Shown here one piece after another: positions 21,158-41,654 of a stretch of 64,000 nucleotides of DNA. Within the stretch, counting starts at the first letter, position 1; every line of letters starts with the position of its first letter. A program made the translations under genes and the position numbers. This DNA comes from Scenedesmus sp. PABB004. Lineage: Eukaryota. The notes beneath the pieces are model-generated. The model ran no database searches. It was not told the origin of the DNA and saw only the letters and a list, made by a program, of their open reading frames with translations. The DNA is taken from contig JABVCE010000020.1 in the NCBI GenBank assembly GCA_014905635.1, positions 62,001 to 126,000 of the forward strand, written 5' to 3'.

Positions 21158-24100
21158 ATGGGTGCGTGGCGCCGGGCGCCGGGCGCGCGGCGCGGCGCGG
21201 CGCAGCGCGCGCCCCCGGCTCGCTGCCGACCCGGCCCCGCCCCGCCTCCGCGCCGCGCCGCGCAGCCGAGAAGAAGCCGGCGGCGCCGGGCGCGGGCGCG
21301 GGGGACGCGCCCGCGGCGGAGGTGGAGGTTGACTTTGCCAAGATCAGCGTGAAGGAGGCGCTCAGCCTGCTCGACGTGAGAGGGGGGCGAGGGGGGCGCG
21401 CGGCGGCGTGCGGGGACGACGGAGCCGGCGGGGAGGGGACGCGGCAGCGCGGGGCCCTTCGCTGCCGACGCGCCGCGCGCGCGCGCCGCGCCGCAGGCGA
21501 CGCCGGCGGGCCTGACCGACGCCGAGGCGGCGGCGCGGCGCGAGAAGTTTGGCCCCAACAAGCTGCCCGACTGCACTGTCAACCCGTTGCTGCGGTGCGC
21601 CACGGCCCGCGCGCCCGCGCCGCGCACGCACGCCCCGCGCGCCCCGCGTCCTGGGTTGCTGCCCGCTGGGAGCCCCTCTCACCCCCCCCTTCCCCCATGC
21701 GCGCAGCTTCCTGGGGTACCTGTGGAACCCGCTGTCCTGGGCGATGGAGGTCGCGGCGGTGCTGGCCATCATTCTGCTCGACTACGCCGACTTTGCGCTC
21801 GTGAGGATGCAATGGAGGGGGGCTCTGTGTTGTGGGGCGGGCGAGGGGGGCGCAATGGCGGGACTAGGGCTTTTTGGCACGGCCGGCGGTTGGCCCGTCA
21901 GTTAGGGTTTTGGCGGCCGCGCGCGGCCGGCCGAGGGGGCCGCGCCGCGCCGCGCCGCAGATTGTGGCGCTGCTGCTGCTCAACGCGACGATCAGCTTTG
22001 TGGAGGAGTCCAACGCCGACAAGGCGATCAAGGCCCTCGCGGGCGCGCTCGCGCCAAAGTGCAAGGCGCGGCGCCGCGCGCGCGCTGCGGCCCGCGCCCC
22101 CGCAGCGCCGCCTTGCGCCCGCTCCCGCGGCCGCCGCCCCTGGCAGCCCTCAACTCTAAACCCTGCAAACCCCGTAACCCTGCGCGCAGGCGCTGCGCGA
22201 CGGGACGCTGCGCACGATGGACGCGGTCGAGATTGTCCCGGGGGACGTGCTCATGGTGCGCCTGGGCGACGTGGTGCCCGCCGACATCAAGATCCTGGGC
22301 GAGGAAGGCGAGGACGAGGAGGCGCCGATGCAGGTGGGGCGCGGGGGAGGGGGCGGTGACGTGCTGGGGGTGTGGGCGCGGCGCGGGCGTGGGTGTGTGG
22401 GTGTGGTGGTGGTCGGTGGGTGAGGGATTGAGGTGGGGGGCGGGTGGCGTGGGCGGCGGCGGGGCGCAGGCTGCGCAGGCGCAGGCGGCTCGCGAGCGCC
22501 GCCCGCGCCGCGTCTGTCGGCGGCCGCAGATCGACCAGGCCGCGCTGACGGGGGAGAGCCTGCCCGTCAAAAAGGTGACCGGCGACGTCGCGTTCAGCGG
22601 CAGCGCCGTCAAGCAGGGCGAGCGCCACGCCGTCGTCTACGCCACGGGTGGGCCGGCGGGCGCGGGGCGGCGGCCGCGCGCGGCTGCGCGCGGCTGCGGA
22701 GGGGGCCCGCGGGGGGCCTGGCGGCCGGCCGCGGCGCGCGCCGGCCGCGCGCGGCGCGCTGACGCTGCCGCCGCTGCCGCCGCCGCGCGGCCGCTGCGCG
22801 TGCCGCCCAGGCGTCAACACGTTCTTTGGCCGCGCCGCCGCCCTCATCGGCTCGACAAACAACGTCGCAAACATCCAGAAGGCGCGTCGCCGCGCGGCCC
22901 CGCGCAGCCGCGCCGCCGCGCGCGGCGAGGGCCCCGCCAGCCGCGCGCCGCCTGGTGCGTCCCTAAACCCTAAACCACCCCCGCCCGGCGCCGGCCCGCC
23001 CTAAACCCTAAACCCCGCCAGGTCATGACCAAGATCGGCGCGATGTGCCTCGTGACCATCGGGCTGTGGGTCGTGGTCGAGCTGGCGGTCATGTTTGGCG
23101 CGTGGCGCCACGGCTGCCGCCTCGGCTCGGGTGCGCGCCGCCGCGCCGCCGCGCTGCCGCCGGGCGCCGCCGCCTCGCCAGCGCGCCGCCGGCCCGCCCG
23201 CGTGCGCGCGCACCGGCCCTCGACGCCCTAAAACCTAAACCCTGCCGCCAGGCCTGTGCCCCGCGCTGGCCAACCTGCTGGTCATCATCGTCGGCGGCAT
23301 CCCCATCGTGAGCGGCAGCAGACCGCGCACCGCCGCGCACCCCCGCGGGGCACGCCCCTCCCCTCCCCTTCCTGGGGCCGCTCACTCTGACCCCCCCCCC
23401 CACACACACACACCCGCCCACCCTCACAAACCCACACCCTCAACCCCGCGCCCCGCCCCCGCCGCCAGGCGATGCCGACCGTGCTGAGCGTCACGCTCGC
23501 GCTCGGCGCGGCGCAGCTCGCGAGCCACGGCGCGATCGTGGCGCGCATGAGCGCGGTGGAGGAGATGGCGGGCATGGACGTGCTCTGCAGGTGGGCGGGT
23601 GTGGGTGTGTGTGTGTGTGTGTGGGTGGGTGGGTGGGTGGGTGGGTGTGGGTGGGTGGGTGGGTGGGTGTGTGTGTATATGTGGGGGGGGGGGGGGAGAA
23701 GGGGCACGCGCGGCGGCAGCACGCGGCGGGCACGCGCGGGGTTTGGGCAGGGTTCTAAGCAAGCCCACGGGGGGCCCGGGGTTGAGGGGGAGACCCCTCC
23801 CGCATCATCGCGCCGCCCCCGGGCCGGTCAGCCCGCGGCGCCGCCCCCCGCCCCGCGCCCTGACCCGTGCCCCTGCCCCGCCGCCCCAACCGCGCTGCCC
23901 CGCCGCCGCCGCCCCGCCCCGCCGCGCAGCGACAAGACCGGCACCCTCACGCTGAACAAGCTCAGCGTGGACACCACCGCGGCGCAGCCCAGCGAGGGTG
24001 CGACGCGCGCGCCGCGCCGCGCCGCGCCGCTGTCCTCTCCCTCTCCCCCTTTCCCTCTCCCTCCCTCCCTCTCCCTCTGTCCTGTCTCCCTCTGCACCCC

Positions 24101-27100
24101 CCCCCCCCCCCTCCCCTGCACACCCCCTCCCCGCTCCCTCGCCCGCCCGCCCCCCGACGCCACCCTCCTAAACCCTGCCCGCCGCCCACCCCCCCTAAAC
24201 CCCAGGCCTGGACGTCCCCGGCCTGGTCAAGTACGCCGCGCTGTCTGCCAACATTGTCGGCGAGGAGGCGATTGACGTGGTGCTGCACAACACATACCCG
24301 GACGCGGCACACCTCTGGGTGGAGGAGGGTGCGGCGCAGCGCGCTGGCGGGGGCGCTGGCCGGGGCGCTGGCCGGCGCGCAGGCCGGGGCACGCCTTGGG
24401 CGCTGGCCGCCGCCACTGCTGGTGCACACGCGCCCCCACGCTCACTCACGCCCACTCATGCATCCCCCCCCCACACACACACCCACGCCAGGCTCCAAGG
24501 CCACCACCGGCTACCGCCGCCTCAAGTTCATCCCATTCAGTGAGCGCCGCCGCAGCCAGCTCAGGGTTTAGGGCTGCCGCTGCTGCTGCCCCAGGGGGCC
24601 GCTGCTGCTGCCACAGGGGGCCGCCGCCCGCGCCCGCGCCGCGCCGCGCCCGCGGCGCCGCCGCCGCGCTCGCGTCGCCCGCAGCGCCGGGGCGGCTCCC
24701 CCAGTCAGCCCCTAAACCCTAAACGCCCCCCTAAACCCCGCCGCGCCCAGACCCTGTGGACAAGTTCACCATGGCGGTCGTTGAGGACGTGGCGACCGGC
24801 CGCGTGCTGCGCCTCATGAAGGGCGCGCCCCAGGTGCGGGGGTTTAGGGGGCCAGGGGGGGGCAGGGTTTAGGGTGGGGTCACGGGTCTAGGGTTTTGCG
24901 CGCGCCCCAGGGAGGGGGGTTGGGGCACAGCCTTGGGGGGCTGAGGGGAGGGCCGCGCCGCCGGCGGGCGCGCGCGGCGGGCGCCGGCGGCCAGCGGCGC
25001 CGCCGGCAGGGGCGGGGGCGCGCCGCGCGCGCCGGGCCGCGCCGCGCGGCGCGCCCCGCCCCTGCCGCGGCGCCGCCGCCGCCGCCCTGGCGCCGTCCTC
25101 CCGCCCTCCACCCTCTCCCCCGCACGCCGACACATACGCGCCTGACCCCTCTCGCTCCCTCCGCCCCTCGCTCCCTCCGCCCTGCCCCCTAAACCCCATC
25201 AACCCCTGCCGCCCCCTAAACCCCAGGTCGTGCTGCAGCGCGCGCACAACTACGCCGACATCAGCGCCAAGGTGGAGCAGCAGATCATTGACTACGCGGC
25301 CCGCGGCTACAGGTGGGGTTTAGTAGGGGGGCGCAAGGGGGCGCTAAACCCTGCGCAGGGTTTAGGGGGCGCAGGGTTGAGGGGGCGCAGCGCGGGGGGT
25401 GGTGGGTCGCTGGACGGAGCGCTCAGCCCCGCCGCCCGCCGCCGCCCTAACCCAACGGAACCCGCCCTGTGCCGCCGCACGCCCCGCCCCCCGTGACCCC
25501 CCGAACCCCCGCCTGGCAGGGCGCTGGGGCTTTGGCCTCGCCGACGGCCCCGGCGCGCCCGACGCGCCCGGCACGCAATGGGAGTTCCTGGGCCTGCTGC
25601 CCCTCTTTGACCCGCCACGGTGCGACGCCCGCGCCCGCGCCCGGCAGCCCAGCGCGCGCCCCCCACGCGCCGCCACATGCCGCGCTCGCGCCCGCGTGCC
25701 CGCGCGCCGCGCCGCGCCCGCCGCCGACCCGCCGCCGACCCGCGCCCGCCGACCCGCGCCCGCCGACCCGCCCCCGCCGCGCCCCGCCCGCCACGTGCCC
25801 CGCCTGCCCCCTGACGCCGCCAGGCACGACACGGCGTCGACCATCGAGCGCTGCCAGGAGCAGGGCATCGCCGTCAAGATGGTTACCGGCGACCAGGCGC
25901 GTGCCCCGTGACGCAGCAGCGCCCGCGCGGGGCAGCAGCGCCCGCGCGGGGCAGCAGCGGCGCGGGGTCTCCGGGCGGCCGGCTGCGGCCGGCCGCTGCA
26001 AAGCCGCCGCACTCAAGGCGCCCCGAGCGCGCGCCGCGCCGTGCGCCGCGTCGCGAGCCCTCCCTGAGCCCCCCGCCCCTGCCGCCGCGCCGCTCTCCCC
26101 TCGCCGCCGCCGCCGCCGCGCGTGCCGCCGCCGCCGCGCGCGCCCGCAGGCGCTGATCGGGCGCGAGACCGCGCGCCAGCTGGGCATGGGGACCAACATT
26201 CACAAGATTGACGTCCTGCTCAAGGCGCGGGCGCTGACTGTTATGAGCGTTCGATTGTCACTTTTTGTTGTTGTCACTTTTGTTGTCATTTTTCCGTGGC
26301 ACGCGTTTGACAGCGCCTCCTCCAGCCGCCGCCGACGCGCGCCCGCACGCGCGCCCCGCGCGCCCGCCGGCGCGCCGCGGACCCCCCCCCCCCCCGCGCG
26401 CAGGCCAAGTCTGGCGGCGGCCTGGTGGAGGGCCACGCGGGCGTGGACGAGCTGGTGGAGGCGGCGGACGGCTTTGCCGAGGTCTTCCCCGAGCACAAGT
26501 ACGAGATCGTGGCCCTGCTGCAGGTGCGGCCCCAGGGTTTAGGCCGGGGCGCGGCGGGGTTAAGGGCGCAGAGGGGCTGCGCGGGCGCGCGGCGGTGCGG
26601 CGGGGGCGGTGGCGGGAGCGGCAGGGGCACGAGGGAGGGAGGGAGGCGCGCGCCGCCGAGCGCGCCGCGCGCGCCCTCGCTCGCCCAGACCCCGCCGCGC
26701 GCCGCGCCCCTCTAAACCCTACACCTCAAACCCCCTAAACCACCCCCTAAACCACCCCCCCCCTGCACAGGGCATGAACCACATGGTCGGCATGACGGGG
26801 GACGGCGTGAACGACGCGCCCGCGCTCAAGCGCGCCGACGTCGGTGCGCAGCCCACGCAGCCCCCGCGCCGCCCGCTGCCCGCGCCGCGCGCGGCTCGCG
26901 CGGGGCTCGCGCGGGCGGGCGGCAGCGGGCGCGCCGCGCCACCGACCGCCGCGCCGCCGCCGCCGCGCCCCGCGCGCCGCGCAGGCATCGCGGTGCACGG
27001 CGCGACCGAGGCGGCGCGCGGCGCGGCCGACATCGTGCTGGTGCGCTGCCGCCCGCGCGCGCCTCTCAGCCCCCGCTCTCCGCCCCGCGCGCGCGCCCTC

Positions 27101-30100
27101 TCCGTCCCTAAAACACCTAAACCCTGTCTCTAAACACCTCCTAAACCCCGTCCCTACCCCCTCCTACCCCCCCCCCCCAGACTGAGCCGGGCTGAGCGTG
27201 ATCGTCGAGGCGGTGATCGGGGCGCGGCGCATCTTCCAGCGCATGACCACCTACGCCAAGTACACGGTGCGGGGGGTGGCTGTGGGGGGCTGTGGGGGGG
27301 GGGGGGGGGGGCTGTGTGTGTGTGTGTGTGTGGCTGCGTGTGTGTGTGACTGTGTCGGTGGGTGACTGTGTGCGGGGCCGCGTGTGTGTGGGGGGGAGGG
27401 GGGAGGGGCGCTGGCTGATGGGCGGGCGCTCCCGCGGGCGGGCGGGCGGGCGGGTGCCCCCGGTACGCGTCAGGCGGCCTCACACACCCGCCTCACCCCC
27501 CCCCCTCACCCCCCCCCCCCCCAGGTCGCGATGACGTTCCGCATCTGCTTCACCTTTGGCCTCCTGACCATCGCCTACAACTGGTGCGCGCCGCCCTCCC
27601 TCGCTCTTTGAATCTCTATCTCTCTCACTCCCTCTCTCTCTCTCTCTCTCTCTCCCTCTCTCCCCCTCTTGCTCCCTGCACTCCCTCTCTCCGCTCACCC
27701 CACCCCCTGCTCCCCCCTGAACCCCCCCCCCCCCACCCCCCCACCCCCCCCACCCCCACCCCCCTTCAACCCCTCCCCCCCACCCCCCCCCCACCCCCCC
27801 CCACCCCCCCCTTCAACCCCTCCCCCCCCACCCCCCCTTCAACCCCTCCCCCCCCCCACCCCCCCCCACCCCCCCACCCCCCCACCCCCCCCACCACCCC
27901 CCCCACCCCCCTTCAACCCCTCCCCCCCTTCAACCCCCCACCCCCCCCCACCCCCCCCCCCCCCCCCCCCCACCCCCCCACCCCCCCCCACCCCCCCCCC
28001 AGGACGTTCCCCACCATCCTCATCGTCCTCCTCGCCGTGTTCAACGACGGCGCCATGATCGCCCTCTCCAAGGACCGCGTCACGCCCAGCCCCACGCCCA
28101 ACAGCTGGCGCCTGCGCGACATCTTTGCCGTGGGCATCGTGTACGGCCTCTACCTCACGCTCAGCACTTGGGTGCTCTTCCACGTGCGCGGTTGAGGGCC
28201 CGTGGGGGACAGGGGCTCGGGGTTTAGCGGGGCTTGGGGCGCAGGGGTGCGGGTCGAGGCGCGTGCGCCGCCGCGCGGCCGGCGCGGCGCTCTGCTGCAA
28301 ACGGCGTCGGCGGCCGGCCGCGGCCGAGCCCCGGCTGGGCCCCGCCTGAGCCCTGGCGGCCGCCTAAACCCTAAACCCTCGCCGCGCGCGCAGGTCGCGG
28401 CCAAGACGACGTTCTTTGACAGCATCGGCATGTTCAGCCTCACCGACACCGACGCCGCCCTCGTGCCCCACTGCACGTGAGCCGCGCTGGGGGGGGGGGG
28501 GCGGGCAGGCGGCGGGGCGAGGAGAGGGGGGAGCGCGCGGGCGCGCGGCGCGCTCGGGGGCTGGCTGGCTGCACAGGCGCGTGTGGCGCGCACGCACGGC
28601 CCCGGCGGCGCCGCCGCCGCCCTGCGCCCTGCCGACGACGCCCCAACCCACCCCGCCCCCAAACACCCCGCAGGTCGCTGCTCGCCGCGCGCGGCATCAC
28701 CGACCTGACGTCCCCCGCGTCTGAGTTTGCGGGCGAGCTGGGCCCGGGGTACGCCGACGTCGACGCGCCGCTGCTGGAGCAGTGCCTCGCGGAGCAGCGC
28801 TACGTGCGCGGCGCGCAGCTGCGCACGCTCATCTACAACCAGGCGCGCCCCCGGTCGGGGTTCAGGGCGCGCCCTCGGTTGGGGTTTAGGGCGCGCCCCG
28901 GGGGACGGGGGTCTGGGCGGGATCCTGGGCGCGCCCTGGGGGGCGGGGTTCTGGGCGCGGTGCTGCGGCAGCGCTGCGGAGGGGCTCGGGAGGGGCTGGC
29001 CGGAGGCGGGGGATCGGGGGGGGGGGGGGGGGGCGCTCCGAGCTCGCCCGCGCCCCTCCCCCCACTCAACGCCACGCTCCGCGCCGCCGCCGGCGCCTGC
29101 CCCCTCAACCCCGCCGCCGCCGCCGCCTCCCCGCCGCCGCGCGCAGGTGTCTGTGAGCGGGCAGGCGCTCGTGTTTGTGGTGCGCACGAGCTCCCACTCC
29201 CTCATCAGCCGCGCGGGCGGGCTGACCTATGTGGCCTTCTTCCTCGCGCAGGCGCGGCGGCGGCGGGGTTTAGGGGGCGGCGGGGTTTAGGGGGCGGCGG
29301 GGTTTGGGGGGCGAGGGAGGGCGGCCTGGAGGGCGACGGCGCGGCGCGGGGCCGCCCCGCTGCTGCGCTTCTCGCGCGCGCCTGCCTGCGCCGCGCCGCT
29401 GACCACACGCCCTCACCCTCACCCCACCCACCCACCCACGCCTGCAAACAGGTCGCGTCGTCGCTCATCGCGGCGTTTGGCTTTGCCGGCTACGACCCGC
29501 CGCCCCAGGGCCTCGACGGCTGCGCGCTCTGCGCGACGAGCAAGGGCACGCACCCGCTCTTCTGGCCGAGCGGCCGCGTGCCGATCGCGCGCACCGAGTC
29601 GGAGTTCACCGCCAGCGTCATCGGCTGCGCGTATTACGTCATCGTGGCCTGGATCTGGTGCGCCCGGGCGCGCGCGCGCGGGGCGCGGCGGCTCTTCCGG
29701 GCCCTCTCCCTCTCTCTTGCCCTCTCTCCCTCTCTCTCTCTCTCTCGCCCCCTCTCTCCCTCTCTCTCTCCCTCTCCCCCTCCCCCTCCCTCCCTCCCAC
29801 TCTCTCCTCTTCTCACCCTAAACCCTAAACCCTGAACCCCCCCGCACCCCCCCCACCCCCCCCAGGTCTGCGCTGTGGTACCTCGCGCTCGACCCGATCA
29901 AGTGGGGCCTCATGTGGTGCCTCAACGAGGAGGGCGTGCGCTCCCGCGCCTCCTGGCGCCGCTTCCTGCGCGGCCGCGCGCGGCCGCCGACCAAGACCGG
30001 TGCGACCGCCGGCTGGCTGCCCGCGCCCGCGCACGCACGCACCCACGCCCACACACCCACACAAACTCACACCCACACAACCTCACACCCACCCACACAA

Positions 30101-30681
30101 ACTCCCCCCCCCCACACACACACACACACGCCCACACGCGCAGGCGAGGAGCACGAGATCACGCTCGGCGCTGCCGCGGCCAACCACCTCAACCCCATGG
30201 GCCGCGCGAGCCTGGGCCGCCCCGACCAGGCCACGCTCGCGCGCGCGTCCATCATCAAGGTGGGCGGGGCGCAGGGCTTGGGGTTTACGGGGGCTGCGCG
30301 CCCGGCGCGGCGCGGGGGCGCGGGCGCCGCGCTGCGCCGCACTGCGCCGCGCTGCGCCGCGCTGCGCCGCCAGCGTCGCTGCGGCCGGCGCGCGCCCGCC
30401 GCCCTCCCAAGCCCACCTCCTCGGCCCTGCCCCCCCCCCCCCCCCCGCAGGTGGACGTCAACCCCGAGACCGGCCTGCGCACCGTCAGCGTCGCGACGCC
30501 CGGCGACCGTGCGCGGCGCAGCATGGAGGTCGCGCGCCACCTCGGCCAGGTCTCCACCGGCAGCCTCGTGGTCGGCGCCAACCCCTACGCCCGCACCAGC
30601 GGCAACCCCTACGCCCGCACGAGCGCGGCGGGGCGCATGCAGCGCGCGACGTCCAACCGGGCCAGCATCGACCTGCCCTAA
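21158..30681 (+). CDS. PMA: Plasma-membrane P-type H+-ATPase (P3A), ~32 exons
   Basis: Motifs [57 protein letters not shown] (phosphorylation site ~23931), [44 protein letters not shown] and [12 protein letters not shown]. One base is missing at ~27190 (TEPGLSVI). Stop TAA at 30679-30681. Confidence 0.95.
27700..28000. repeat. C-rich low-complexity intron tract with recurrent CCCCTTCAACCCC units (G4-prone on the minus strand)
   Basis: Nearly pure C runs broken by A or TTCAA; preceded by a CT-rich tract at ~27620-27690. Confidence 0.8.
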
Positions 30682-31160
30682 GACGCGCGCGGCGCGACGC
30701 GCGGCGCGGCGTGTGCGGCGCGGCGCGTGGGACGGCGCGCGGGGGCGGCGACGCGCGGCGCGGGCGCGGCGCGCGGGGATGGGAGCGCGCGGCGGGGCTT
30801 GGGGTGTTGGGGGGTTTAGGGGGAGGGCTGCATGCAGCGGGCGGGCATCGATGGCCGCCGCCGCCGCCGCGTGCGTGCACGCGTGCGTGCGTGCGTGCGC
30901 GCGGTGGGCCCAGATGACTGGCCGCAGCTGGCCAGCAGCGCGTGCTGCCAGCGGCTGCGGCGCCGGCGGCTTTTGGCGGCGGCGGCGGTGTGGGGGATTC
31001 AGCCAGGGATTGCACTGGCTCGGCCTGGGCCGCTCAGCGGGCTTTGACTCGGCCTGGCGGCGACGGTGTGGGGGGCTTCACGACGGATAAATGGTGCCAC
31101 CATTCATGGTGCTGGCGGCCTTGGATTGTGCCATGAGCGTCGCGACTCACTCGCTGACCA

Positions 31161-31193
<33 letters not shown>

Positions 31194-31406
31194 AGGGAGG
31201 GCGGTGGGCTGGGGGCGCGCGCGTGGCAATTGACACGCCGCAAAGCCCCGCAACGCCCCGCGCGCGCCGCAAGCCCAGAGCGGCCACTTCAGCGCGAGCA
31301 CCTTGCGGCCTCCAGCAGCCACCACGCGAGTCGGCGCCCGCAGCCGCCCGCCGCGGCAGCAGCAGCAGCACCGGCCGCGCCGGCTCGCACGCGCCCGCGC
31401 GCAGCC

Positions 31407-33235
31407 ATGCTGACGTCGCGGGGAGCTGTACAAGCGGGCGTGAGCATGCTGCGCCTGCGCGCGGGCCCGGGAGGCGCCTGGTGGTGCGGGCCGCGCCTGG
31501 CCCGGGCATCGTCCGGCACTCCGCGGCCCGCCAGCAGCGGCAGCGAGTCCCAGACGGCGCCGCTGGACATCCCCGCGCTGGCAAAGATGGCGCACATCCA
31601 AGTCAGCGAGCAGGAGGTGCAATGGGGCGACGTGCGCGCCGCGGGTGCCGCCGGAGCAGCGGCGGCGAGCTCGGCCGGCGCCGCCGCGCGAGCGCGGCCC
31701 GCCGCCCTCGCGCGCGCGTCGCAGGTGGCCGAGTGGGAGCCCAAGATCTCCGGCATCGTTGACTGGTGCGCCGCCGGGCGGGGGCGCGGGCGCGGGCAGC
31801 GCGGGCAGCGGCGCGGCCGGCGTGCGGCGCTCCCCGGGCGGCGGCTCACGCGGCGGGGGCCCGCGCCGCGCGCAGGTTTGGGCAGCTGCAGGCGGTGGAC
31901 GTGGAGGGCGTGCCGCCCGCGGTGCACGCACGCGACGAGGGCAACGTGCTGCGGCCGGACGAGCCCGCCGTGTATGCCAACAGGCGCGCACGCAGGCGCC
32001 CGGGAGGGGGGACAACGCGCGCCGCCGGCCCACGCCGGCGTGCCCGCGCAGCGCGCGCGGGGGCGGCGCAGGCCCGCCGTGGCGGCGTCCCGCCTGCGGC
32101 GGCGGCGCAGACGCGCGCCGCGCCGCCGCCGCCGCCCCGGCAGGGAGGCGATCATGGCGGCAGTCCCGGAGCAGCAGGGCGGCTTTGTGCGCGTGCCCAA
32201 GATCTCCACCGGCGCCGACACGCCGCCCGCGAGCAGCAGCAGCAGCAGCACCAGCACCAGCAGCAGCGTGGACGACGCCCCCGCCGCCGCCGCAGCCGCC
32301 GCCGCCGCGGGCGACGCCGGTGGCGTGAGCGAGGCGGAGCGCGCGGCGCTCGCGGCGCTGGACATCCGCGTCGGCCGCGTGCTGTCCTGCGAGCGCCACC
32401 CCGACGCCGACAGGTGCGCGGCCGCGGCCGCGCCGCGGCAGGCTCTGACCTGGGCCCCCGGGCCGCCACCAAAACCGCGCCACACCTCTAAACCGCCCTG
32501 AACCCTCCTCCCCGCCGCAGCCTGTACGTGGAGCAGATTGACGTCGGCGAGCCGGAGCCGCGCACGATCGTGTCGGGGTGCGGCGACGTGGCCGCGCGGC
32601 GCGGCGCGGCGACGCGCGGCCGGCGCGCTGCCGGCGCGCAGCGCCGCAGCACACAGCATGGGCCCGCCCGCGGGGGTGCGCGGCGCTCTCTCCGACGACC
32701 CCCCACACGCCTTCACGCACGCGCTCACGCACACGCGCTCACGCACCACGCCCACGCACGCGCGCACACCCCGGCGGCCGCGCAGGCTGGTCAAGTACGT
32801 GCCGCTGGAGGCCATGACGGGGCGCGGCGTCATCGTGCTGTGCAACCTCAAGCCGCGCAGCATGCGGGGAATCAAGGCGCGGACCGCGGCAGGGGCTCGC
32901 TCGCGGGGGCCCGCGGGGCGCCCAGCCGCCGCGCGGCGCCTGGGCGCGGGCTGACCGCCGCCCGACCTCCTGCGGCCGCGTGCCCCCCCCCCCCCCCCCC
33001 CCCCCCCCGGCCGCCCGCCCCCGCACGCGCGCGCAGAGCCACGGCATGCTGCTGGCCGCGTCCAACGAGGAGCACACCGCGGTGGAGCCGCTCGCGCCCG
33101 CGCCCGGCGCGGCGCCCGGCACGCGCGTGTGGTTTGGCGAGCAGCGCGAGCAGGCGCGGCGCGCGCACAGCGCGCACAGCGCGCGGCGCGCGCAGGGCGC
33201 CGCGCGGGGGCAGCGCGCAGGCGTTGCGCGACCGC

Positions 33236-33266
<31 letters not shown>

Positions 33267-33436
33267 AGGCCGCGCCGATGGAGCCCAACCCGCTGGCCAA
33301 GAGGAAGGTGTGGGAGGGCGTGGCGCCGGTGCTGCGCACCGACGGCGAGCGCGCCGCCAACTTCAAGGGCGCCGCGATGCGCACGGACGAGGGGCCCGTC
33401 ACGGCGGCCAGCCTCGCCGGCGCGCGCATCGGCTGA
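31407..33436 (+). CDS. GATC: Organellar Glu-tRNA(Gln) amidotransferase subunit C fused to an EMAPII/Arc1p-like tRNA-binding OB-fold domain
   Basis: Arg/Ser/Ala-rich transit-like N-terminus. GatC part: LDIPALAKMAHIQVSEQEVAEWEPKISGIVDWFGQLQAVDVEGVPP...NVLRPDEP...REAIMAAVPEQQGGFVRVPKI. tRNA-binding part: [44 protein letters not shown]...VLCNLKPRSMRGIKSHGMLLAAS...SLAGARIG*. Eight exons. Confidence 0.88.
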
Positions 33437-33867
33437 GGGGCTGAGGGGGGCGCTCTGCAACAGTTGCGTGCAGTTGAGCTTTACGCGCGCCGAGCAGCCG
33501 GCGCGGCCAAGGCGCAGAGCAGCGGCGGCAGCGCACGCGGCGGCAGCGCACGCTTGCCGCCCCGAGTGCGCTTCCTGCACGTAGTTGGCTCCTGCTGGGG
33601 TGCCCACACGACAGGGCGTCGCGGCAGGGCGCAAAGAGACGACCGGCATGTCACTCGGCGCTCAAAACTGAAACCGCGAGCTGCGCACGGCAGGGGCTTC
33701 CCAGGCCGGCTGGCCGCACCTCGCTCGCCGCTCCCCCGCAGCGCGGCGCGCAGCCAGCGCGGCAGCACCGCACGACCGCAACGGCTAGTGGCCCGCGCCG
33801 CATCCAGGGCCCGCGGGCGACCATGGCGGCCCGCAGCGAACGGAGGCGGCCGTGAGATGCTGACGGC

Positions 33868-34666
33868 ATGAAGCGCGCGCTGGCGCAGGTGGCGCCCAGC
33901 GCGACGCCGCTGCCGAACGCGCTGGGCAAGAAATGCCGGCCCGCCGGGCTTTGCGGCACGCCCGTGGAGGGCCTGACGGAGGTGCGGGCCCTGGGCCGGG
34001 CCAGCCGGGCGCCAGCGCTGCGCGTTGTGGCGGGGCGGTTGCCGAATGCTGCCCTCCGCAGGTGGACACGCCGGAGAGCCAGCAGCGCGCGGGCTTCATC
34101 CCCGACACCACCCAGAGACGGCTGGAGGACTTCTGCCTCAGCACGCCTCTGTCGCTGAGCCAGGCGGCCGGCGTGGAGGTGGGCGCGCGGGCGCGCGCTG
34201 CGCCGCCGCTGCTGTGGCCGGCGCGGCGCCGGCACGGGGCGCGCGCCGACCGCGCCGCCGCCCCCGCGCGGCCCCTGCTGCAGACGCCGACGCTGGGAAC
34301 CAAGGGCCCGCAACAGGCGGCGCAGCAGGCGGCGCAGCAGCAGCCGGCGAGCCGGGGCAAGGATGGCGGCAGCGGCCAGGCCGGCGGCGCGCCGCGGCAC
34401 CGCCTCGCCAACATCAGCAACCTCCCGCCCAGCCCGCTGCGCAGCCCGGCGCGCGATGAGGGCGACGCGGCGGCTATGGACTGCAGCGTGCAGCCCAAGC
34501 AGCGCCCCGCGTCGGCGCAGCAGGCGCAGCAGGCGCAGCAGCAGCAGCAGCAGCCGGCCCGCCCGCAGCGCGGACGGCGGCCAGGGCAGCCCATGTTCTT
34601 GAGAGGTGGGTGCGGCGGGCGCCGCGCCGGGCCCAGTGGGGCACTGACGAGCTGGCCGGCCGGTGA

Positions 34667-34709
<43 letters not shown>

Positions 34710-36901
34710 CCGTCCCGCCCACCCGCCGCGCCCGCTGCGCCCGCCGCGCCCGCCGCGCCTGCCGCGCCCGCCGCGCCGCGCCCACAGAGCTGATGTCGCC
34801 CGCGGCGACGACGCCCGGCCCGGGCAGCGCGGCGCGGGCGGGCGCGGCGCTGTCGGCCGTGGCGGCGACGCCGTACCCGCCGTCGTGCGGCGGGGCTGCC
34901 GGCGTGTGCCCCGGCTCCGCCTGCTTTGGCAGCGAGGACGGCTTTGTGCTGCACACGAGCCAGTCCTACTGCCGGTCCAGCCAGCCCGCGATCAGCCCCA
35001 ACGTTGCGGCGGGGCTCGCAGCGGCGGCGCCGGACGCCGACGAGGACGCCGGCGCGGCCGCGGACGACGGCGACGGCGGGGCGGGGTGCCTGCAGCAGCA
35101 GCCGTTCACCACGCCCTCGCAGGACAGCAGGGTGCGGGCGCGCGCGGCGCACGGCGTGCGTGCGCAGCGGCGCCGTGGGTGCCGGCGGGCTGACCCAACC
35201 GCGCGCCCGACCGCGCAGGAGCCGCCGCGGCCGAGCGCGTCCAACGTGACCTGCAGCGCCGCAACGTCGATGGACCACCCCGACGCCGACCACCCCGGCG
35301 CGGCGCCGCCGCCGCAGCTGCTGGCGGGCGCGGCGCAGCTGCAGCCGCACGCCGGCCCGCGCTGCAGCCAGCCGGCGCGCGGCGAGGCGGCGGGCCCGAG
35401 CCGCTTTGCCAGCGGCGGCAGCAGCCACACTGGCTTTGCGCTCGCCGCGGCCGCGAGCGCGACGCCGGGCGAGTCGCTCGCCGCGCTGCTGGGCGAGCGA
35501 GAGCTCGAGGAGACGGCCACGCCAGAGCTGGAGCAGATCGGCATCGGCAGCCAGGACCCCGGCGGCAGCCAGCCGAGCGCCGCGCGGCGCGCCGCAGCGG
35601 GCGGCGCGGGCGCGGCGCACGCCGCGGCCGGCGCGGCGGGCCGCAGCGGCGGCGGCGCCGGCGGCAGCGGCGTGGTGTGCGAGGAGGTGACGGCGAAGCA
35701 GGTGCTGTTCCCGATCTTCCGGCCCAAGAGCTGCCGCAAGTGCGTCATCCTCGTGCGGCACGGCGAGTCGAGTGAGTCGCGGCAGAGGGGCAGAGGGGCA
35801 GGGGGGGGGGGGGCAGGCGAGCGCGCGCGCCGCCTGCCCCGCCTGCAGCGGCGGCGGCGGCGGCGCGCCGAGCCTCCCGCCGCCGCCGTCGTGCTGCGCA
35901 GCGTACAACCGGCTGGACGCGCACGGCAAGGCGTGGTCCGACCCGACCGTCTTTGACGCGCCGCTCACGGCGCGGGGGCGGCAGCAGGCGGCGGGCGCGC
36001 AGCGCGAGCTCGCGCGGCAGCTCGAGAAGCACAGCGCGCTCGGCGGCGTGCTCTGGCTCAGCAGCCCGCTGAGCCGCGCGCTGGAGACGATGCTGCTGGC
36101 CTTTCCCGACCTGGAGCAGCTCGCGCGCGGCCAGCCGGGCGCGAGCCGGCGGCCGCTCGTGGCGACGCCGAGCGCGCACCGCGTCATGGTGCTCAGGTGA
36201 CGCCGCCGCGCTGTGCGCTGCGCCCCGCCCCGCCCCCTGGTCCTGCTGCGTGCCGCTGGTCCCCGCTGGTCCCCCCCCTGGTCCCCGCTGACTCGCTCGC
36301 TGCCTGCCCGCCGCCGCCGCGCCGCGGTCGGCGCAGCATGATCGCCGAGCACTGCGCGACGACCGGCGACGTGGGCCGCCCCGCCAGCCAGCTCACGGCG
36401 CGCTTCCCCGCGCTCGCGAGCCAGCTGGGCGAGCTGCCGGAGCAGTGGTGGTTCAACCCCTGCCCCGTCAACCCCAACTGCGCGCAGAAGCGGTACGGCG
36501 CGGCGTGCATGCGCTGCTGCGGCTGCGCCCCCCTGCTGCCCCGTGCTGCCCCCCGCGCTCGCGCGCCCCCGCGCGCTCACGCCGCCCCGCGCTCACGCGG
36601 CACAGGCTGTTTGGGCGCAAGGAGACTCTGGACGAGATGCGGCGCCGCGTGAGCGAGTTTAGCCGCTGGCTGCGCGCCACGCCGGAGCAGGTGCGCGCCG
36701 CGCCGCGCCGATTGCGTGCGGCCTTTCAGCCTTTGCTCGCGGCGCGCGCGCGCTCACCCGCCGCGGCGCGCGCGCTCACCGCCGCCGCGCCCCCACGCGC
36801 CGCAGGTGGTGGTCGCGTTTGGTCACAGCACGTATTGGAAGTACTTCAGCAACAGCAAGGCCAAGATGCGCAACTGCGAGGTGCTGCAGCTCTGGTGGTG
36901 A
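33868..36901 (+). CDS. Histidine phosphatase (phosphoglycerate mutase-like) family protein with a long disordered N-terminus
   Basis: VILVRHGES (RHG at ~35756), FDAPLTARGRQQA, SSPLSRALET, GDVGRP, ET...RRRV and VAFGHS; ends NCEVLQLWW*. Confidence 0.8.
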
Positions 36902-37899
36902 CCCCGCGGGGTGGTGGTGACCCCGGGGCCCCCGGTCCGCCTGGGCGCGCCGCGGGGGCGCGCGCGCCGGCGGCGGCTGGCCGCGCGCGAGGGGGGCGCT
37001 GACCCCTGACCCGGCGCGTTGCGTCGGCGCGCCGCGCCGCGACGGCTGACCCACATGACCCGTGAGTTGCCGGCGGCCCGCGCCGCGCGGCCGCGGCGCC
37101 GGCTGTGCGGACGTCACGGCGGTGCACGCGCGACGACGCCGCCCCCGGTCGTGCGCCGCGGCCGCCGCGGTCGGCGTGCGCCGCCGCCCTCGCGGCCTGA
37201 GCGGCATCGCGCGCCGCGTGCTGAGCGGGCCGCATTGGCCCGCGCAGCAGCGGCGTGACAGCACTGAGCGGGCGCGCCTCACCGCCGGGCGGCGGCAAGG
37301 AGCGGGAGGGCGGCTGCGGAGCGTGAACGCTTGAGCGCGCCTCGCCGCAGCCAACGAATGAACGGCCGCGCCGGCTCGTCCACGCCGTGCCGCGCGCGCT
37401 GCCGGCCGCCGCGAGGCGTGAGGCCGTCGCCGTGCCAAGCTGCTCCGGCGCGTGCTTGACCAGCTCGTTTCGAATAGCCTCGGTCGAGCTCAGCTTGGCG
37501 TGTGGCCAGCCCGCCTGGCCACAGTGCGCACGCTGCGAGCAGCGGCGGCGCGGGGTGACGCCGAGCGCGTGTTGCCGCGAGCCCGCAAAACCGCGCCCAA
37601 ACGCTCGCTTTCGCCATTATCTAGCCCCAGGCACGCCGCCCAGGCCCGCACGCCCGCATCTCCAGCGCCCGGCCAGCTCCGGCCCGCCAGGCTGCCTCCC
37701 CCGGCCCGCTGAGCCTCCCAGCCGTCGCGCCGCCCGGCAGTTCGCCGTCTCCCACCATGCAAGAACCAACTCTCGCCTCGCCAGCACCGCCCCGCGCACA
37801 CACGGCCCGCGGCACCGTGTCGGGCATCGACGCTGCTGCCGCAGCGCGCGCCCGCGCGACGAGGGGGCCAGCGGCATGCTCCTAGTGGGTTGAGCCGAC

Positions 37900-40505
37900 A
37901 TGGCTTCACTCCGTGATGTCGCTCCGGCTCCGGCAGCGCTCGCACTGGCGGCGGCGCTGGCGCTGCTGCTCGCGGCCGCCCCGGCCGGCGGCGCGGCGGC
38001 GTGCGGGCCGCGGCGCGGCCTGCTGGCGGACGGGGGCGGCCCGCGCAGCCTGCTGGCTGCCAGCTCTGTGCCCTCCGGGCACTGCCCGCCTGGCCACGGC
38101 TGGTCCGACCACCACCACGGCCACTACGAGCCGTGCAAGCGCGGCACCTGGTCGGCGGGCGGGCCGGACGCCGTGTGCCAGCCCTGCCCCAAGGGCTACA
38201 CCACTCCCGGCCCGGGTGCAACGTCGCCGGCGGCCTGCACCGACTGCCGGGCCGGCTACGGCCGCCCGCCCGGCAGCCGCGTGCCCGTCTGCGAGCCCTG
38301 CCCGACCGGCACGTGGCGCTCCGCCAAGCCGGGGGCCGGCCTCAAGCTGTGCCACCCGTGCCCGCCGCTGACGACGACGCCAGGCCCTGGCTCCAAGACC
38401 GCGGCCGCGTGCAACGAGACCGTCCCCACCCCCACGCCCGACCAGGAGTCGGTGCTGCTGCGCGGCCTGGCGGAGCTGGGCCTGCCGGCCGACAATGCGT
38501 ACGTCGTGTCCTGGCGCCGCGGCACCGACAAGTGCACCTGGAAGGGCGTGGCGTGCTCGTCCACCACGCCGCGCGTGGTCACCGGCATTGGCATGGCCCC
38601 TCACCAGCAGCCGACGGGTCGCCTGCCGCGCGCGTGGGGCGAGCTCGGCTCGCTGCAGAAGCTGGGCATGTACTTTGTTGGCCGCGCCAACTTCAGCGAC
38701 GCGTCGTGGCCGCAGTCGTGGCGCAACCTCACCCGCCTGAGGTCGCTTGAGCTCATCAACACAGGCGTGACTGGCACGCTGTCGCTGGCGATGCTGCCGC
38801 CAAACGTGGAGGGCGTGCGGCTCCTGGGCACCCACTTCACCACCCTGGCCGACGACGTGGCGCCCGGCGCGCTGCCCCCGCTGGTTCAGCTGACCATACA
38901 GCAAGACCCGCCATGGCTGATCCGGGGGACGCTGCCGGCGTCGTGGGGCGCGCTCACCGCGCTGGAGACGCTGTCCCTGGACCTGGCGCTCACGTCCGGC
39001 GCGCCCCTGCCCGACTGGCGCGGCATGGTGAGCCTCACGGGGCTGAGGCTCAAGGTGAATGACCAGGGCCTGACCGGCCCGCTGTCGCTGGCGTCGCTGC
39101 CGCGGAGCGTGGAGAATGTGCAGCTTCTGGGCGCCCGCTTCACCTCCCTGGCCGACGACGTGGCGCCGGGCGCGCTGCCCGCGCTGGTCCAGCTGGAAAT
39201 ACAGCAGGACCCGCCACACCTCATCGCCGGCCCGCTGCCGGCGTCGTGGGGCGCGCTCACCGCGCTGAAGCTGCTGGACCTCCACGGCCAGGCGCTGACC
39301 GGCCCGCTGCCCGGCGCGTGGTCCGGCATGGCCGCGATGCATGACCTCACCCTGGCCGGCAACGCGCTGACCGGGCCCCTGCCTGTCGCCTGGGCCGGCA
39401 TGGCCAAGCTCTCAAACCTGGCCCTGGGGTACAACGCCCTCACCGGCAACGTCCCTGCGGCCTGGCTTGGCATGCCGGCGCTGACGTCTCTGAACCTGCA
39501 GAACAACGCGCTGTCGGGGCCGCTGCCCGCCGCCAAGGTGCCCGCCAAGCTGCAGTCCCTGGCCCTCAGCCACAACCAGGTGCGCTGCGTCGCCTGGCAA
39601 GGCGGCAGCACAACTTGTGCTGCTTGGACGCGCCCCATGCGGGCACCGCTGGCTGCAGGAGGCGCGCGAGCGCACGTCCGTGTGTGTAGACGACCCAGCG
39701 CCGCCGCCGCCGCCGCCACCCCGCAGCTGACGGGCCCCATCGACGGCTGGGCGGGGTGGACCACTGGCAGCTCAGATTGGCAATGCCACGGTCGCGCGCT
39801 GTCCTTGGCCCACAACCAGCTCACCGGCCCGCTGCCCGAGGCCCCAGGGAGCTGGTTCTTTGTCGACCTGACGGGCAACGCCCTCACCTCCACGCTGCCG
39901 GCCGCCTGGGCGCAGTGGACGGTCGACAATGGTGGGCGCAGTGCGCTGCAGCCGCTGCTGGCGGCCGGGCGCGCGGCGCGTGGGGCGTGCATAGCCCAGC
40001 CAATCCACAACCCGCTCCCAGCTCACACCTGCTGCCTGCTCATGCAGGCTGCTCTGGCAACATCGTGCTCAACCTCGGCAACAATCAGCTCCGCGGCCCG
40101 CTGCCGCCGGAGTGGGCCACCTGGCCAGTGCCTCCTGCCAAGTCAGCACTTAACGTCCTCAACCTCACCGGCAACCTGCTCGGTGCGACGCTGCCGCCCG
40201 AGTGGAGCAGCACGTACCTGCAGTTTGTGGACATGAGCTACTGCGACCTGCGCGGCGAGTTTCCGTCGAGCTGGGCGGCGCTCAAGAATTTTGAAAAGCT
40301 GGCCATCAACGACAATGCACGGCTCTCGGGCTGCCTGCCGCCCGCGTGGCTCGAGCGCGAAACGTTCCTGCTGGTGCACCCGCGCGTGTGCGAGGAGCCA
40401 GGAGGCTGCACCACGACATGGCCTATGAGCGCGCTGGAGAGCGGCACGCCGCTCGACCCGGACCCGCTGCGCAACACCAACATCACGGGCCTGTGCGCGC
40501 CGTAG
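37900..40505 (+). CDS. Secreted leucine-rich-repeat protein: signal peptide, Cys-rich GCC2/GCC3 (ephrin-receptor-like) repeats, LRRNT cap and plant-type LRRs
   Basis: Hydrophobic signal ALALAAALALLLAAA; CxPCPxGxxTPGPGxTSxAAC repeats; SW...DKCTWKGVAC cap; LxLxxNxLTGPLPxxW repeats. Introns 39580-39726 and 39932-40047. No TM helix or kinase domain before the stop. Confidence 0.85.
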
Positions 40506-40660
40506 CCGCCGCCGCTCATTGAGCAGGGGGCGTGCACGTCCCGTCCGTGTTGCTGCACCCAGCGCAGTCCAGCGGGCAGACGGTGGGAGGGTGCTGGCAG
40601 CGGTGCCGCTGCGGCCGCGCACGCCAAGTCAGCGCTGGAGGCATCGACGACGTGTTGCGA

Positions 40661-40705
40661 CGCGAATCCGCCCATTTCATTCGCGAATCCGCCCATTTCA
40701 TTCGC
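40661..40705. repeat. 21-bp direct tandem repeat (CGCGAATCCGCCCATTTCATT) x2
   Basis: Exact copies at 40661-40681 and 40682-40702. Confidence 0.85.
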
Positions 40706-41654
40706 TAAGCTGACCGCGCGGCGGCCGCGCGCGCTTGCTCCCTGCTTGGTGCGATGCGCGCGGCCGGCCAGCAGGTTGCACGCGCACAGGCACGGGTGCA
40801 TCAATGCGCCCCCTGAAGCCTTGGGAGAAGGGGTTTCAACACGGGGCTGCCCCACAAGCAAGGCACGCGACGCCGCGAGAGGCGCGGCCCCGCCGGGTTT
40901 GGACCTTGGTCTCCGTGAGCAGCTTGCTGGGTGGTGCGCACCAGGGGCGCGGCGCGGCGTCGCCGCGCTGCTCGTGGGATGGGGCGGCAGCTGCACTGAC
41001 CTTGGGATGTGGGGTGGGCGGGGCACGCCGGCTGCTGTGCGCTCGCGCGACTGCCGGGGCGCCGACGACAGGGCAAGGGGCGCCGCTGGCTGCGCGCGTG
41101 TGGTCGCGTCCGCTGCTGGCGCGGGCATTCACCAACTCGCGCGTGGGGCGCTGCGCATCCGGGACTGAGCTTGGGTTGGACTGATTTGAGTGCTTTGAGT
41201 GCGGCGCACGTTGCCGCTTGACGCTTGTACAGAGGCGGCTCCTGCCAAGCCCGTGGCCGCCAACCCAAACGCATGCACTCACCGGCCTCGCGTGGGGCCG
41301 CTGGCATCCAAACAAGCTTTGATGGACGCTGCTGCGCAGCGGGGGCAGGTGGCGTAAACGTTGTGGTGCGCGGCGGTGGCCGCGGCGGCTGCTCCGGGGG
41401 TGCCGCGCAGCGAATGAGCGGGGGCCAGCCCAGCAGGCGCCGGGCAGGCGCGGCGAGCTGCACGGCCTGCAATTACAGTGCCACTGGCGCCAGGCGCTCT
41501 CCCCGCTCCCGCTGCCGGCTCGCCCTGTGGAGGGCAGGCGGCCGTCAGGGGCCGCCCGATCCCGTCCGCTCCACTTCCTCCCGCTCCGCAGCGGGGCCAG
41601 CCGCTGCGGCCGCCGCTGCGGCAGCTGCTGCTGGCGCTGGCGCTGCCGCCGCTG

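Follow-up and report, generated by a model that had tools for sequence, protein, structure and literature searches.

A GatC subunit with an appended EMAPII-type tRNA-binding domain in Scenedesmus and other chlorophyte algae: a candidate tRNA-end capture arm of organellar GatCAB

Plastids and plant mitochondria are not known to obtain Gln-tRNA(Gln) by any route other than the amidotransferase GatCAB, which converts Glu-tRNA(Gln) to Gln-tRNA(Gln); the small subunit of GatCAB, GatC, is regarded as a purely structural belt. Ordinary GatC proteins measure about 95-105 amino acids (aa) and end just past an aromatic-x-V/R-V-P-K/R sequence, which we take to be the conserved C-terminal motif that ends the belt. 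EMAPII-type OB-fold domains, on the other hand, are known from AIMP1/EMAPII, human TyrRS, yeast Arc1p and plant MetRS, where they sit on a synthetase or on a GST-like scaffold, and in their long form a C-terminal subdomain stands in for the dimer partner of Trbp111, which makes them monomeric. Here we describe a gene that joins the two, found in a window of 64,000 nucleotides (nt) of Scenedesmus sp. PABB004 (contig JABVCE010000020.1, positions 62,001-126,000). The gene occupies positions 31407-33436 of the window on the + strand and comprises eight exons. Its predicted product of 353 aa contains a complete GatC, including the C-terminal F-V-R-V-P-K that it shares with bacterial and organellar GatC (3h0l_C from Aquifex, 2df4_C from S. 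aureus, 4wj3_C from Pseudomonas), but where an ordinary GatC ends, a linker and then a tRNA-binding domain of 167 aa follow; this domain has the long monomeric form of the EMAPII type and sits on an amidotransferase subunit. An earlier note on this DNA had drawn attention to the fusion and had stated that GatC normally lacks a tRNA-binding domain, a statement that these comparisons support.

Other described systems resemble this arrangement in part. A second tRNA-handling module linked to the C-terminus of GatC is also seen in PDB entry 3al0, presumably the Thermotoga maritima glutamine transamidosome crystal, whose chain C is, by its molecule name, an engineered GatC-linker-GluRS; that construct is artificial and its tethered module is a synthetase, whereas the window protein carries a generic tRNA-end binder. 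Another eukaryotic lineage with a remodelled small belt subunit is represented by GatF of the yeast mitochondrial GatFAB (PMC4027206), but GatF is a fungus-specific replacement of GatC and the abstract of that study mentions no tRNA-binding domain, unlike what is seen here. For the tRNA-binding half, fusion of EMAPII-type domains to synthetases is described as raising the local concentration of tRNA and lowering the Km for tRNA (PMC11286949), and the in-cis cofactor logic of MetRS, TyrRS and Arc1p is the one that, by analogy, we propose for the window protein. Our reading of the gene, to which we assign a probability of roughly 60%, is that GatC anchors a generic, in-cis arm of organellar GatCAB for the capture of tRNA 3' ends, with GatB providing the specificity for tRNA(Gln).

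When the eight exons are spliced in silico, they yield a single open frame of 1062 nt (353 codons plus the stop) that begins with an ATG at 31407 and ends with a stop codon at 33434-33436. The first 52 residues of the product resemble a presequence, being rich in S, G, A and R and carrying a net charge of +5 with a single acidic residue; residues 53-141 constitute a complete GatC and residues 187-353 a long EMAPII-type tRNA-binding OB domain, and between these lies a linker of 45 aa (residues 142-186) of low complexity (A14 S11 T4 G4 D4 P3). On exon 3 by itself the Pfam GatC profile (PF02686) reaches 30.5 bits, above its cut-off of 23; the Pfam tRNA_bind profile (PF01588) scores 13.5, 25.7 and 14.9 bits on exons 4, 6 and 7, each below its cut-off of 27, because introns split the domain. 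Local GatC and EMAPII profiles, built from eight full-length homologues, match the spliced product at 150.6 bits (residues 53-141, covering profile positions 2-90 of 90) and at 291.7 bits (residues 187-353), respectively. All eight full-length homologues lie above both Pfam cut-offs, with a GatC score of 60.6 bits in the homologue P0006 and tRNA_bind scores of 107-112 bits or more. Hidden Markov models therefore call both domains, whether by Pfam on exon 3, by the local profiles on the spliced product or by Pfam on the homologues.

The joint between the two halves lies within exon 4, which has an AG acceptor and a GTGCGC donor and is translated without a stop into 89 residues, in which the GatC motif GGFVRVPKI is followed by a Ser/Ala/Thr-rich stretch and then by the start of the OB fold. 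Both local profiles match this exon by itself, at 16.2 bits for the end of GatC and 32.6 bits for the start of the OB domain, and together with the stop-free translation this confirms what had been noticed earlier from the sequence, namely that the end of GatC, the linker and the beginning of the OB fold share one exon. Within the motif, R-V-P-K is invariant in the alignment of homologues (alignment A1); in an alignment of 12 divergent fusions (A2), P144 is the sole invariant residue of the motif and V143 is nearly so.

The spliced product is 71% identical to P0006 and colinear with it through the last residue. The GatC part of P0006 matches the solved GatC chains 3h0l_C, 4wj3_C and 2df4_C (E-values of 5e-9 to 4e-6), and its residues 203-365 align end to end with residues 7-169 of the C-domain of human TyrRS (1ntg, E-value 1e-38); the same region also matches EMAPII/AIMP1 (1euj 7-162, 1e7z, 1fl0, 8ong, 4r3z) and Arc1p (4r1j, E-value 1.5e-31). 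The assignment of the appended domain to the EMAPII/Arc1p type, already proposed for this locus, is supported by the alignment with 1ntg, and through the colinearity with P0006 the C-terminal subdomain of the long form, some 60 aa beyond the OB barrel, is present in the window product as well. An AlphaFold2 model of P0006, made with a shallow alignment of eight sequences, is poor (mean predicted local distance difference test score, pLDDT, of 57; residues 55-180 below 50; OB domain mostly 60-90), and as a weak hint nothing in it argues against a flexible linker.

In the gene model (Table 1), exon boundaries were set on AG and GT/GC dinucleotides. The acceptors are AG in all seven introns; four of the seven donors read GTGCxx and the remaining three are GC (GCGCGC at 31984, GCGCGG at 32877 and at 33154). 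The three GC-AG introns thus defined (31984-32143, 32877-33036 and 33154-33268) are each supported by a junction that is gap-free and colinear in the alignment with the homologues. GC-AG introns make up about 1% of introns in most eukaryotes, and the share of three in seven is far above this value, which may be a trait of a genome with 78% GC. When GT was sought within 15 nt of the three GC donors, it was absent at two of them, including the donor of exon 6; at the third, the nearby GTs lie upstream only and, as read from the sequence, their use would drop residues that are aligned in the homologues, so the GC donors are no modelling convenience. Compared with nine homologues, the spliced product shows no gaps at any of the seven junctions, and besides the identity to P0006 it is 63-66% identical to the proteins of Monoraphidium and Raphidocelis (Sphaeropleales) and to P0008, and 51-56% identical to the homologues from Chlamydomonadales, identities that point to a chlorophycean alga as the probable source. 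The GC content of the three codon positions is 72, 57 and 94% (GC1, GC2 and GC3) and that of the introns is 87%, a pattern of exons and introns that fits genuine coding sequence in such a genome.

Table 1. Exons of the GatC-EMAPII fusion gene, in coordinates of the window.
Feature	Position	Strand	Evidence
Exon 1: ATG, presequence (aa 1-52, 31407-31562), first GatC helix (aa 53-70)	31407..31616	+	GatC profile begins at residue 53
Exon 2: GatC	31725..31765	+	AG acceptor, GTGCGC donor; colinear with homologues
Exon 3: GatC core, then GC donor GCGCGC	31876..31983	+	Pfam GatC 30.5 bits; junction colinear with homologues
Exon 4: GatC C-terminal motif (to 32207), linker (32208-32342), start of OB fold (from 32343)	32144..32413	+	
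Exon 5: OB fold; DS of the HPDADS loop split over the exon 4/5 junction	32521..32577	+	
Exon 6: OB fold, NLKPRSMRGIK part of the 3'-CA-binding loop, then GCGCGG donor	32786..32876	+	tRNA_bind 25.7 bits
Exon 7: loop continues (SHGM), OB barrel ends, EMAPII-specific C-terminal part begins; GCGCGG donor	33037..33153	+	tRNA_bind 14.9 bits
Exon 8: EMAPII-type C-terminal subdomain (KRK basic patch, end ...GARIG), stop	33269..33436	+	EMAPII profile reaches residue 353

OB domains of the Trbp111/Arc1p class are described as binding mature tRNAs with micromolar affinity and as recognising nothing in them but the single-stranded C75-A76 at the 3' end, the contacts being made by K33, K73, P74, R75, I77, F78, S82 and M85 in Trbp111 and by D226/S227, K269, M273, R274, S278 and M281 in Arc1p (PMC11286949). 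The window product carries K-P-R-S-M-R-G-I-K-S-H-G-M over the exon 6/7 junction, with HPDAD-S 41 residues upstream, and the two stretches lie in the register of the CA-binding residues of both proteins, as compared by their published residue numbers only. The K, R, S and M positions of the loop are invariant in all 12 of the divergent fused proteins. At the level of sequence, the CA-binding residues of Trbp111 and Arc1p are conserved in the window protein, which the domain thus has in common with the known EMAPII-type domains, and for this reason the likeliest role of the domain would be the generic capture of tRNA ends.

The fusion had been presented as a feature of this alga, and this was not borne out: judged by domain content, the GatC-EMAPII fusion is a conserved chlorophyte architecture of the Chlamydomonadales, Sphaeropleales and Mamiellophyceae, and public databases already contain it. 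Exon 4, searched alone against longer proteins, has 19 matches, 10 of which carry both Pfam families. A profile search of 1.84 billion representatives returned 17,312 matches at E<=0.001, almost all of which are EMAPII-type domains that belong to other proteins; of the best 150 matches, 14 are apparently full-length, and Pfam finds both domains in 9 of the 14, the GatC part of two more (P0023 and P0093) being seen by the local profile only. In a word-based search with the alignment of 12 fusions, at least 30 of the 120 matches listed carry both families, and all of these are in the top 34. The fused proteins include those of Chlamydomonas reinhardtii (CHLRE_08g364650v5, Cre08.g364650), C. incerta, Edaphochlamys, two Volvox species, Gonium, Pleodorina and Astrephomene, of Raphidocelis and Monoraphidium in the Sphaeropleales and, by cluster look-up, of Micromonas commoda (XP_002501308.1, 482 aa) and Ostreococcus tauri (XP_003078155.2, 350 aa) in the Mamiellophyceae. 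One MMETSP transcript and large clusters of marine metagenome proteins, with as many as 300 members, also contain the fusion, and the ESM Atlas holds one chlorophyte cluster of 56 members with both Pfam families in all of them; look-ups in the Atlas returned nothing beyond this cluster of the fusion family itself. Linker length and sequence vary widely among the fused homologues.

The automatic names of the fusion in UniProt and NCBI differ: some entries are 'Glutamyl-tRNA(Gln) amidotransferase subunit C' and others are hypothetical proteins, while still others are wrongly called AIMP1 or MetRS (MetRS beta chain). As to whether the architecture had already been characterised, a possibility allowed for in the earlier note, it is present in the databases, and a full-text literature search (with subscription journals and supplements outside its scope) brought up no paper in which a GatC-EMAPII fusion is described or tested; the architecture is apparently uncharacterised.

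Some candidates were rejected as fusions. P0238 ('Quercus suber', 386 aa) has a fusion-like score and carries two tandem tRNA_bind domains instead; P0097 and P0100 combine an Arc1p_N-like domain with tRNA_bind, and P0127 has tRNA_bind alone, the long profile match in these three arising from a low-complexity linker. Separately, the public model P0005 (Raphidocelis subcapitata, 929 aa) contains a second partial OB copy (362-411) and about 500 unrelated residues, and looks like a merged gene model. The family also holds truncated database models of 160-210 aa.

The best non-fused matches to the fusion profile are proteins of about 240-300 aa with an N-terminal extension and an EMAPII-type domain, from land plants, Chara, Closterium and Parachlorella, and the stand-alone proteins of land plants reach 260-284 bits on this profile. 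Among them, the AT3G59980 family (about 250-300 aa, 'tRNA-binding domain-containing protein') falls in the same tree group as the window domain and has its own N-terminal extension but, unlike the window protein, no GatC part. An N-terminomics table lists for Arabidopsis AT3G59980.1 an N-terminal peptide at residues 76-88 (PMC5947142), which matches residues 76-88 of P0321, and we read this as the removal of a presequence of about 75 residues. That table was the sole paper with the locus name, and no functional study of AT3G59980 was found in the literature.

To place the domain, we extracted it from 234 proteins that hold it near full-length (46 fused, 146 short and 42 long), and thinned these by identity to 140 for an overview with FastTree. 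A quick IQ-TREE calculation was made with 71 hand-picked rows, of which 28 were fused, 28 stand-alone and 15 attached to other modules, the domain lying, according to Pfam, on MetRS, TyrRS, Glu/GlnRS or an Arc1p-like N-domain. In the IQ-TREE result, the 15 synthetase- or Arc1p-attached domains are split from the 56 green fused and stand-alone ones by a branch with a Shimodaira-Hasegawa approximate likelihood-ratio (SH-aLRT) support of 98; the phylogeny suggested in the earlier note as a check thus groups the window domain with the fused and stand-alone proteins of the green lineage, apart from the synthetase-attached domains. The window sequence lies within an all-fused chlorophycean clade (12 rows, support 99), the fusions of the Ostreococcus/Micromonas type form a separate all-fused clade (13 rows, support 92), and the stand-alone proteins of streptophytes group in a clade of their own (9 rows, support 95). 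The label 'fused' takes five changes on this tree, three of which are forced by well-supported branches. However, the main split has a support of only 80 in the FastTree overview of 140 rows, where five 'long' rows fall on the green side, and the 'short' rows in the tree sets include truncated gene models, so that any count or direction of fusion and fission events read from these trees would be tentative.

On the evidence of these sequences, the OB-domain lineage of the fusion occurs in free-standing form, behind a presequence of its own, in land plants, charophytes and Parachlorella. In Chlorella ohadii, an 86-aa GatC model (P0459) ends exactly where the linker would begin, and Parachlorella kessleri has a separate EMAPII-type protein of 240 aa (P0260), which suggests that trebouxiophytes possess the split form. 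A search with the GatC part against shorter proteins, which gave five candidates and four matches, says little about unfused algal GatC. Some eukaryotic proteins of the class I Glu/Gln-tRNA synthetase type (tRNA-synt_1c; P0065, P0078, P0112 and P0143) also carry a C-terminal EMAPII-type domain, which means that more than one enzyme of the Glu/Gln charging pathways has acquired this tRNA-end binder.

We propose that the gene is nuclear and supplies the GatC subunit of an organellar GatCAB, putatively that of the plastid and probably also that of the mitochondrion. A cleavable presequence ahead of GatC would direct the protein to the organelle, where the GatC part would wrap the GatA-GatB interface, as in bacteria, and the monomeric OB domain would swing on a flexible Ala/Ser tether of about 45 residues. 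With modest affinity and irrespective of the amino acid, the domain would bind the single-stranded CA at the 3' end of tRNAs, raising the local concentration of tRNA at GatCAB, and would then pass the acceptor end to GatB, whose own elements would select tRNA(Gln). Chain C of 3al0 is matched by P0006, and since it is a GatC-linker-GluRS, a module tethered at the C-terminus of GatC is compatible with the crystallised complex; by analogy, this fits the capture arm without proving it. The same can be said of plastid-ribosome pull-downs in Chlamydomonas, in which Cre08.g364650 and GatA (GAT1) are both putative interactors of response cluster B (PMC8894945, Table 1), a shared listing that fits the proposed arm and does not prove it. 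In that table Cre08.g364650 is labelled 'Methionyl tRNA synthase', which shows that the fusion went unrecognised there. Of the extra tRNA-capture arm envisaged in the earlier note, generic capture and hand-over are plausible, but this class of OB domains binds the universal 3' CA end (PMC11286949) and cannot by itself select tRNA(Gln), and to judge from its described members such selection is unlikely for the window domain. The term 'transamidosome' and the channelling of substrate from a non-discriminating GluRS were likewise put forward earlier, and nothing in the sequence supports either.

Several points weigh against a capture arm of this kind. The register of the loop was taken from the residue numbers given for Trbp111 and Arc1p in the paper, and not from a residue-level alignment to those sequences. 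The position of F78 in Trbp111 and R274 in Arc1p is R in the window protein and in the chlorophyceans but A or G in the Micromonas/Ostreococcus-type proteins, and on account of this substitution the stacking on C75 may differ in the latter. The OB domain would also hold the same 3' end that is needed in the active site of GatB, and would for that reason have to release its substrate before catalysis. Finally, covalent tethering is not essential, because land plants and at least one trebouxiophyte encode GatC and the OB protein separately.

Some of the same observations could be accommodated if the OB domain had a role other than feeding GatB, which we consider unlikely. In its variants, the domain would shield the labile aminoacyl end of Gln-tRNA(Gln) until EF-Tu takes over, keep deacylated tRNA(Gln) at hand for GluRS to recharge, or hold the enzyme near organellar ribosomes engaged in translation. 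The authors of PMC11286949 themselves suggest a possible accommodation or protection of aminoacyl-tRNA or a help in tRNA trafficking, and the appearance of the Chlamydomonas orthologue and GatA in one cluster of putative plastid-ribosome interactors (PMC8894945) would suit a position near the ribosome. However, co-purification with ribosomes may run simply through bound tRNA, and the precedent for EMAPII-type domains on synthetases is a lowered Km for tRNA (PMC11286949).

The split arrangement in other green lineages raises a further alternative, namely that the fusion is a vehicle for co-expression and co-import whose linker is cut after import, leaving two separate proteins such as those that land plants encode. 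Streptophytes, Parachlorella and probably Chlorella ohadii do encode the parts separately, the OB protein having its own N-terminal extension, and the N-terminus of AT3G59980.1 was observed at residue 76 (PMC5947142); in addition, the linker is of low complexity, and the stretch 55-180 of P0006, which includes it, has a pLDDT below 50. Yet the fusion has been kept across Chlorophyceae and Mamiellophyceae despite a widely varying linker, which fits a tether better than a conserved cleavage site, and the linkers of the 12 divergent fusions, when aligned, show no conserved processing motif, so that we regard cleavage as quite improbable. That the fusion is an artefact of gene modelling or assembly, with two adjoining genes read as one, is extremely improbable: three of the seven introns do need non-canonical GC donors and the family does contain clearly wrong database models (the Raphidocelis model of 929 aa and the truncated fragments of 160-210 aa), but the GatC-OB junction lies inside a single stop-free exon, independent genomes and one MMETSP transcript show the same architecture, and all seven junctions are colinear with the homologues, the GC donors being without a usable GT nearby.

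The capture of tRNA 3' ends by an arm on GatC can also be set against the free-standing relatives. In a Rosetta-stone reading, which we put forward tentatively and would not expect to hold in full, the green EMAPII-type protein might be a dedicated and hitherto unrecognised fourth component of organellar Gln-tRNA(Gln) synthesis across the Viridiplantae, fused to GatC in Chlorophyceae and Mamiellophyceae and free-standing in land plants (the AT3G59980 family), charophytes and Trebouxiophyceae; in every lineage the OB protein would then serve GatCAB by handling the 3' end of tRNA.

The surroundings of the gene offer few landmarks. The window has a GC content of 77.8% and contains 619 stop-free frames of at least 60 codons over the six frames, which makes the length of an open reading frame (ORF) worthless as evidence for a gene here. 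A survey of the flanks took in every ORF of 70 aa or more with any part in 24000-41000, except those lying wholly in 31000-33600; of these 144 ORFs, only two had Pfam matches at E<=1e-5, both to leucine-rich repeats (LRR). A stop-free frame of 780 codons at 37894-40233 (+) matches LRR_8, LRR_1 and LRR_4 together with Ephrin_rec_like, and an overlapping frame at 39690-40502 (+) has a further LRR match; the two are probably a large exon of an LRR receptor-like gene about 4.5 kilobases downstream of the fusion gene. The + strand of the window has only three copies of TGTAA, the Chlamydomonas-type poly(A) signal, and the region downstream of the fusion gene has none.

The gene described here adds a further orthologue to an architecture with existing database entries, and recognition of this architecture corrects annotations such as 'Methionyl tRNA synthase', AIMP1 and MetRS beta chain. 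It also points an uncharacterised plastid OB-fold protein of land plants to a likely pathway, the organellar synthesis of Gln-tRNA(Gln). A natural fusion between the belt of GatCAB and a binder of tRNA 3' ends provides a direct, testable handle on how organellar amidotransferases take up or let go of their tRNA.

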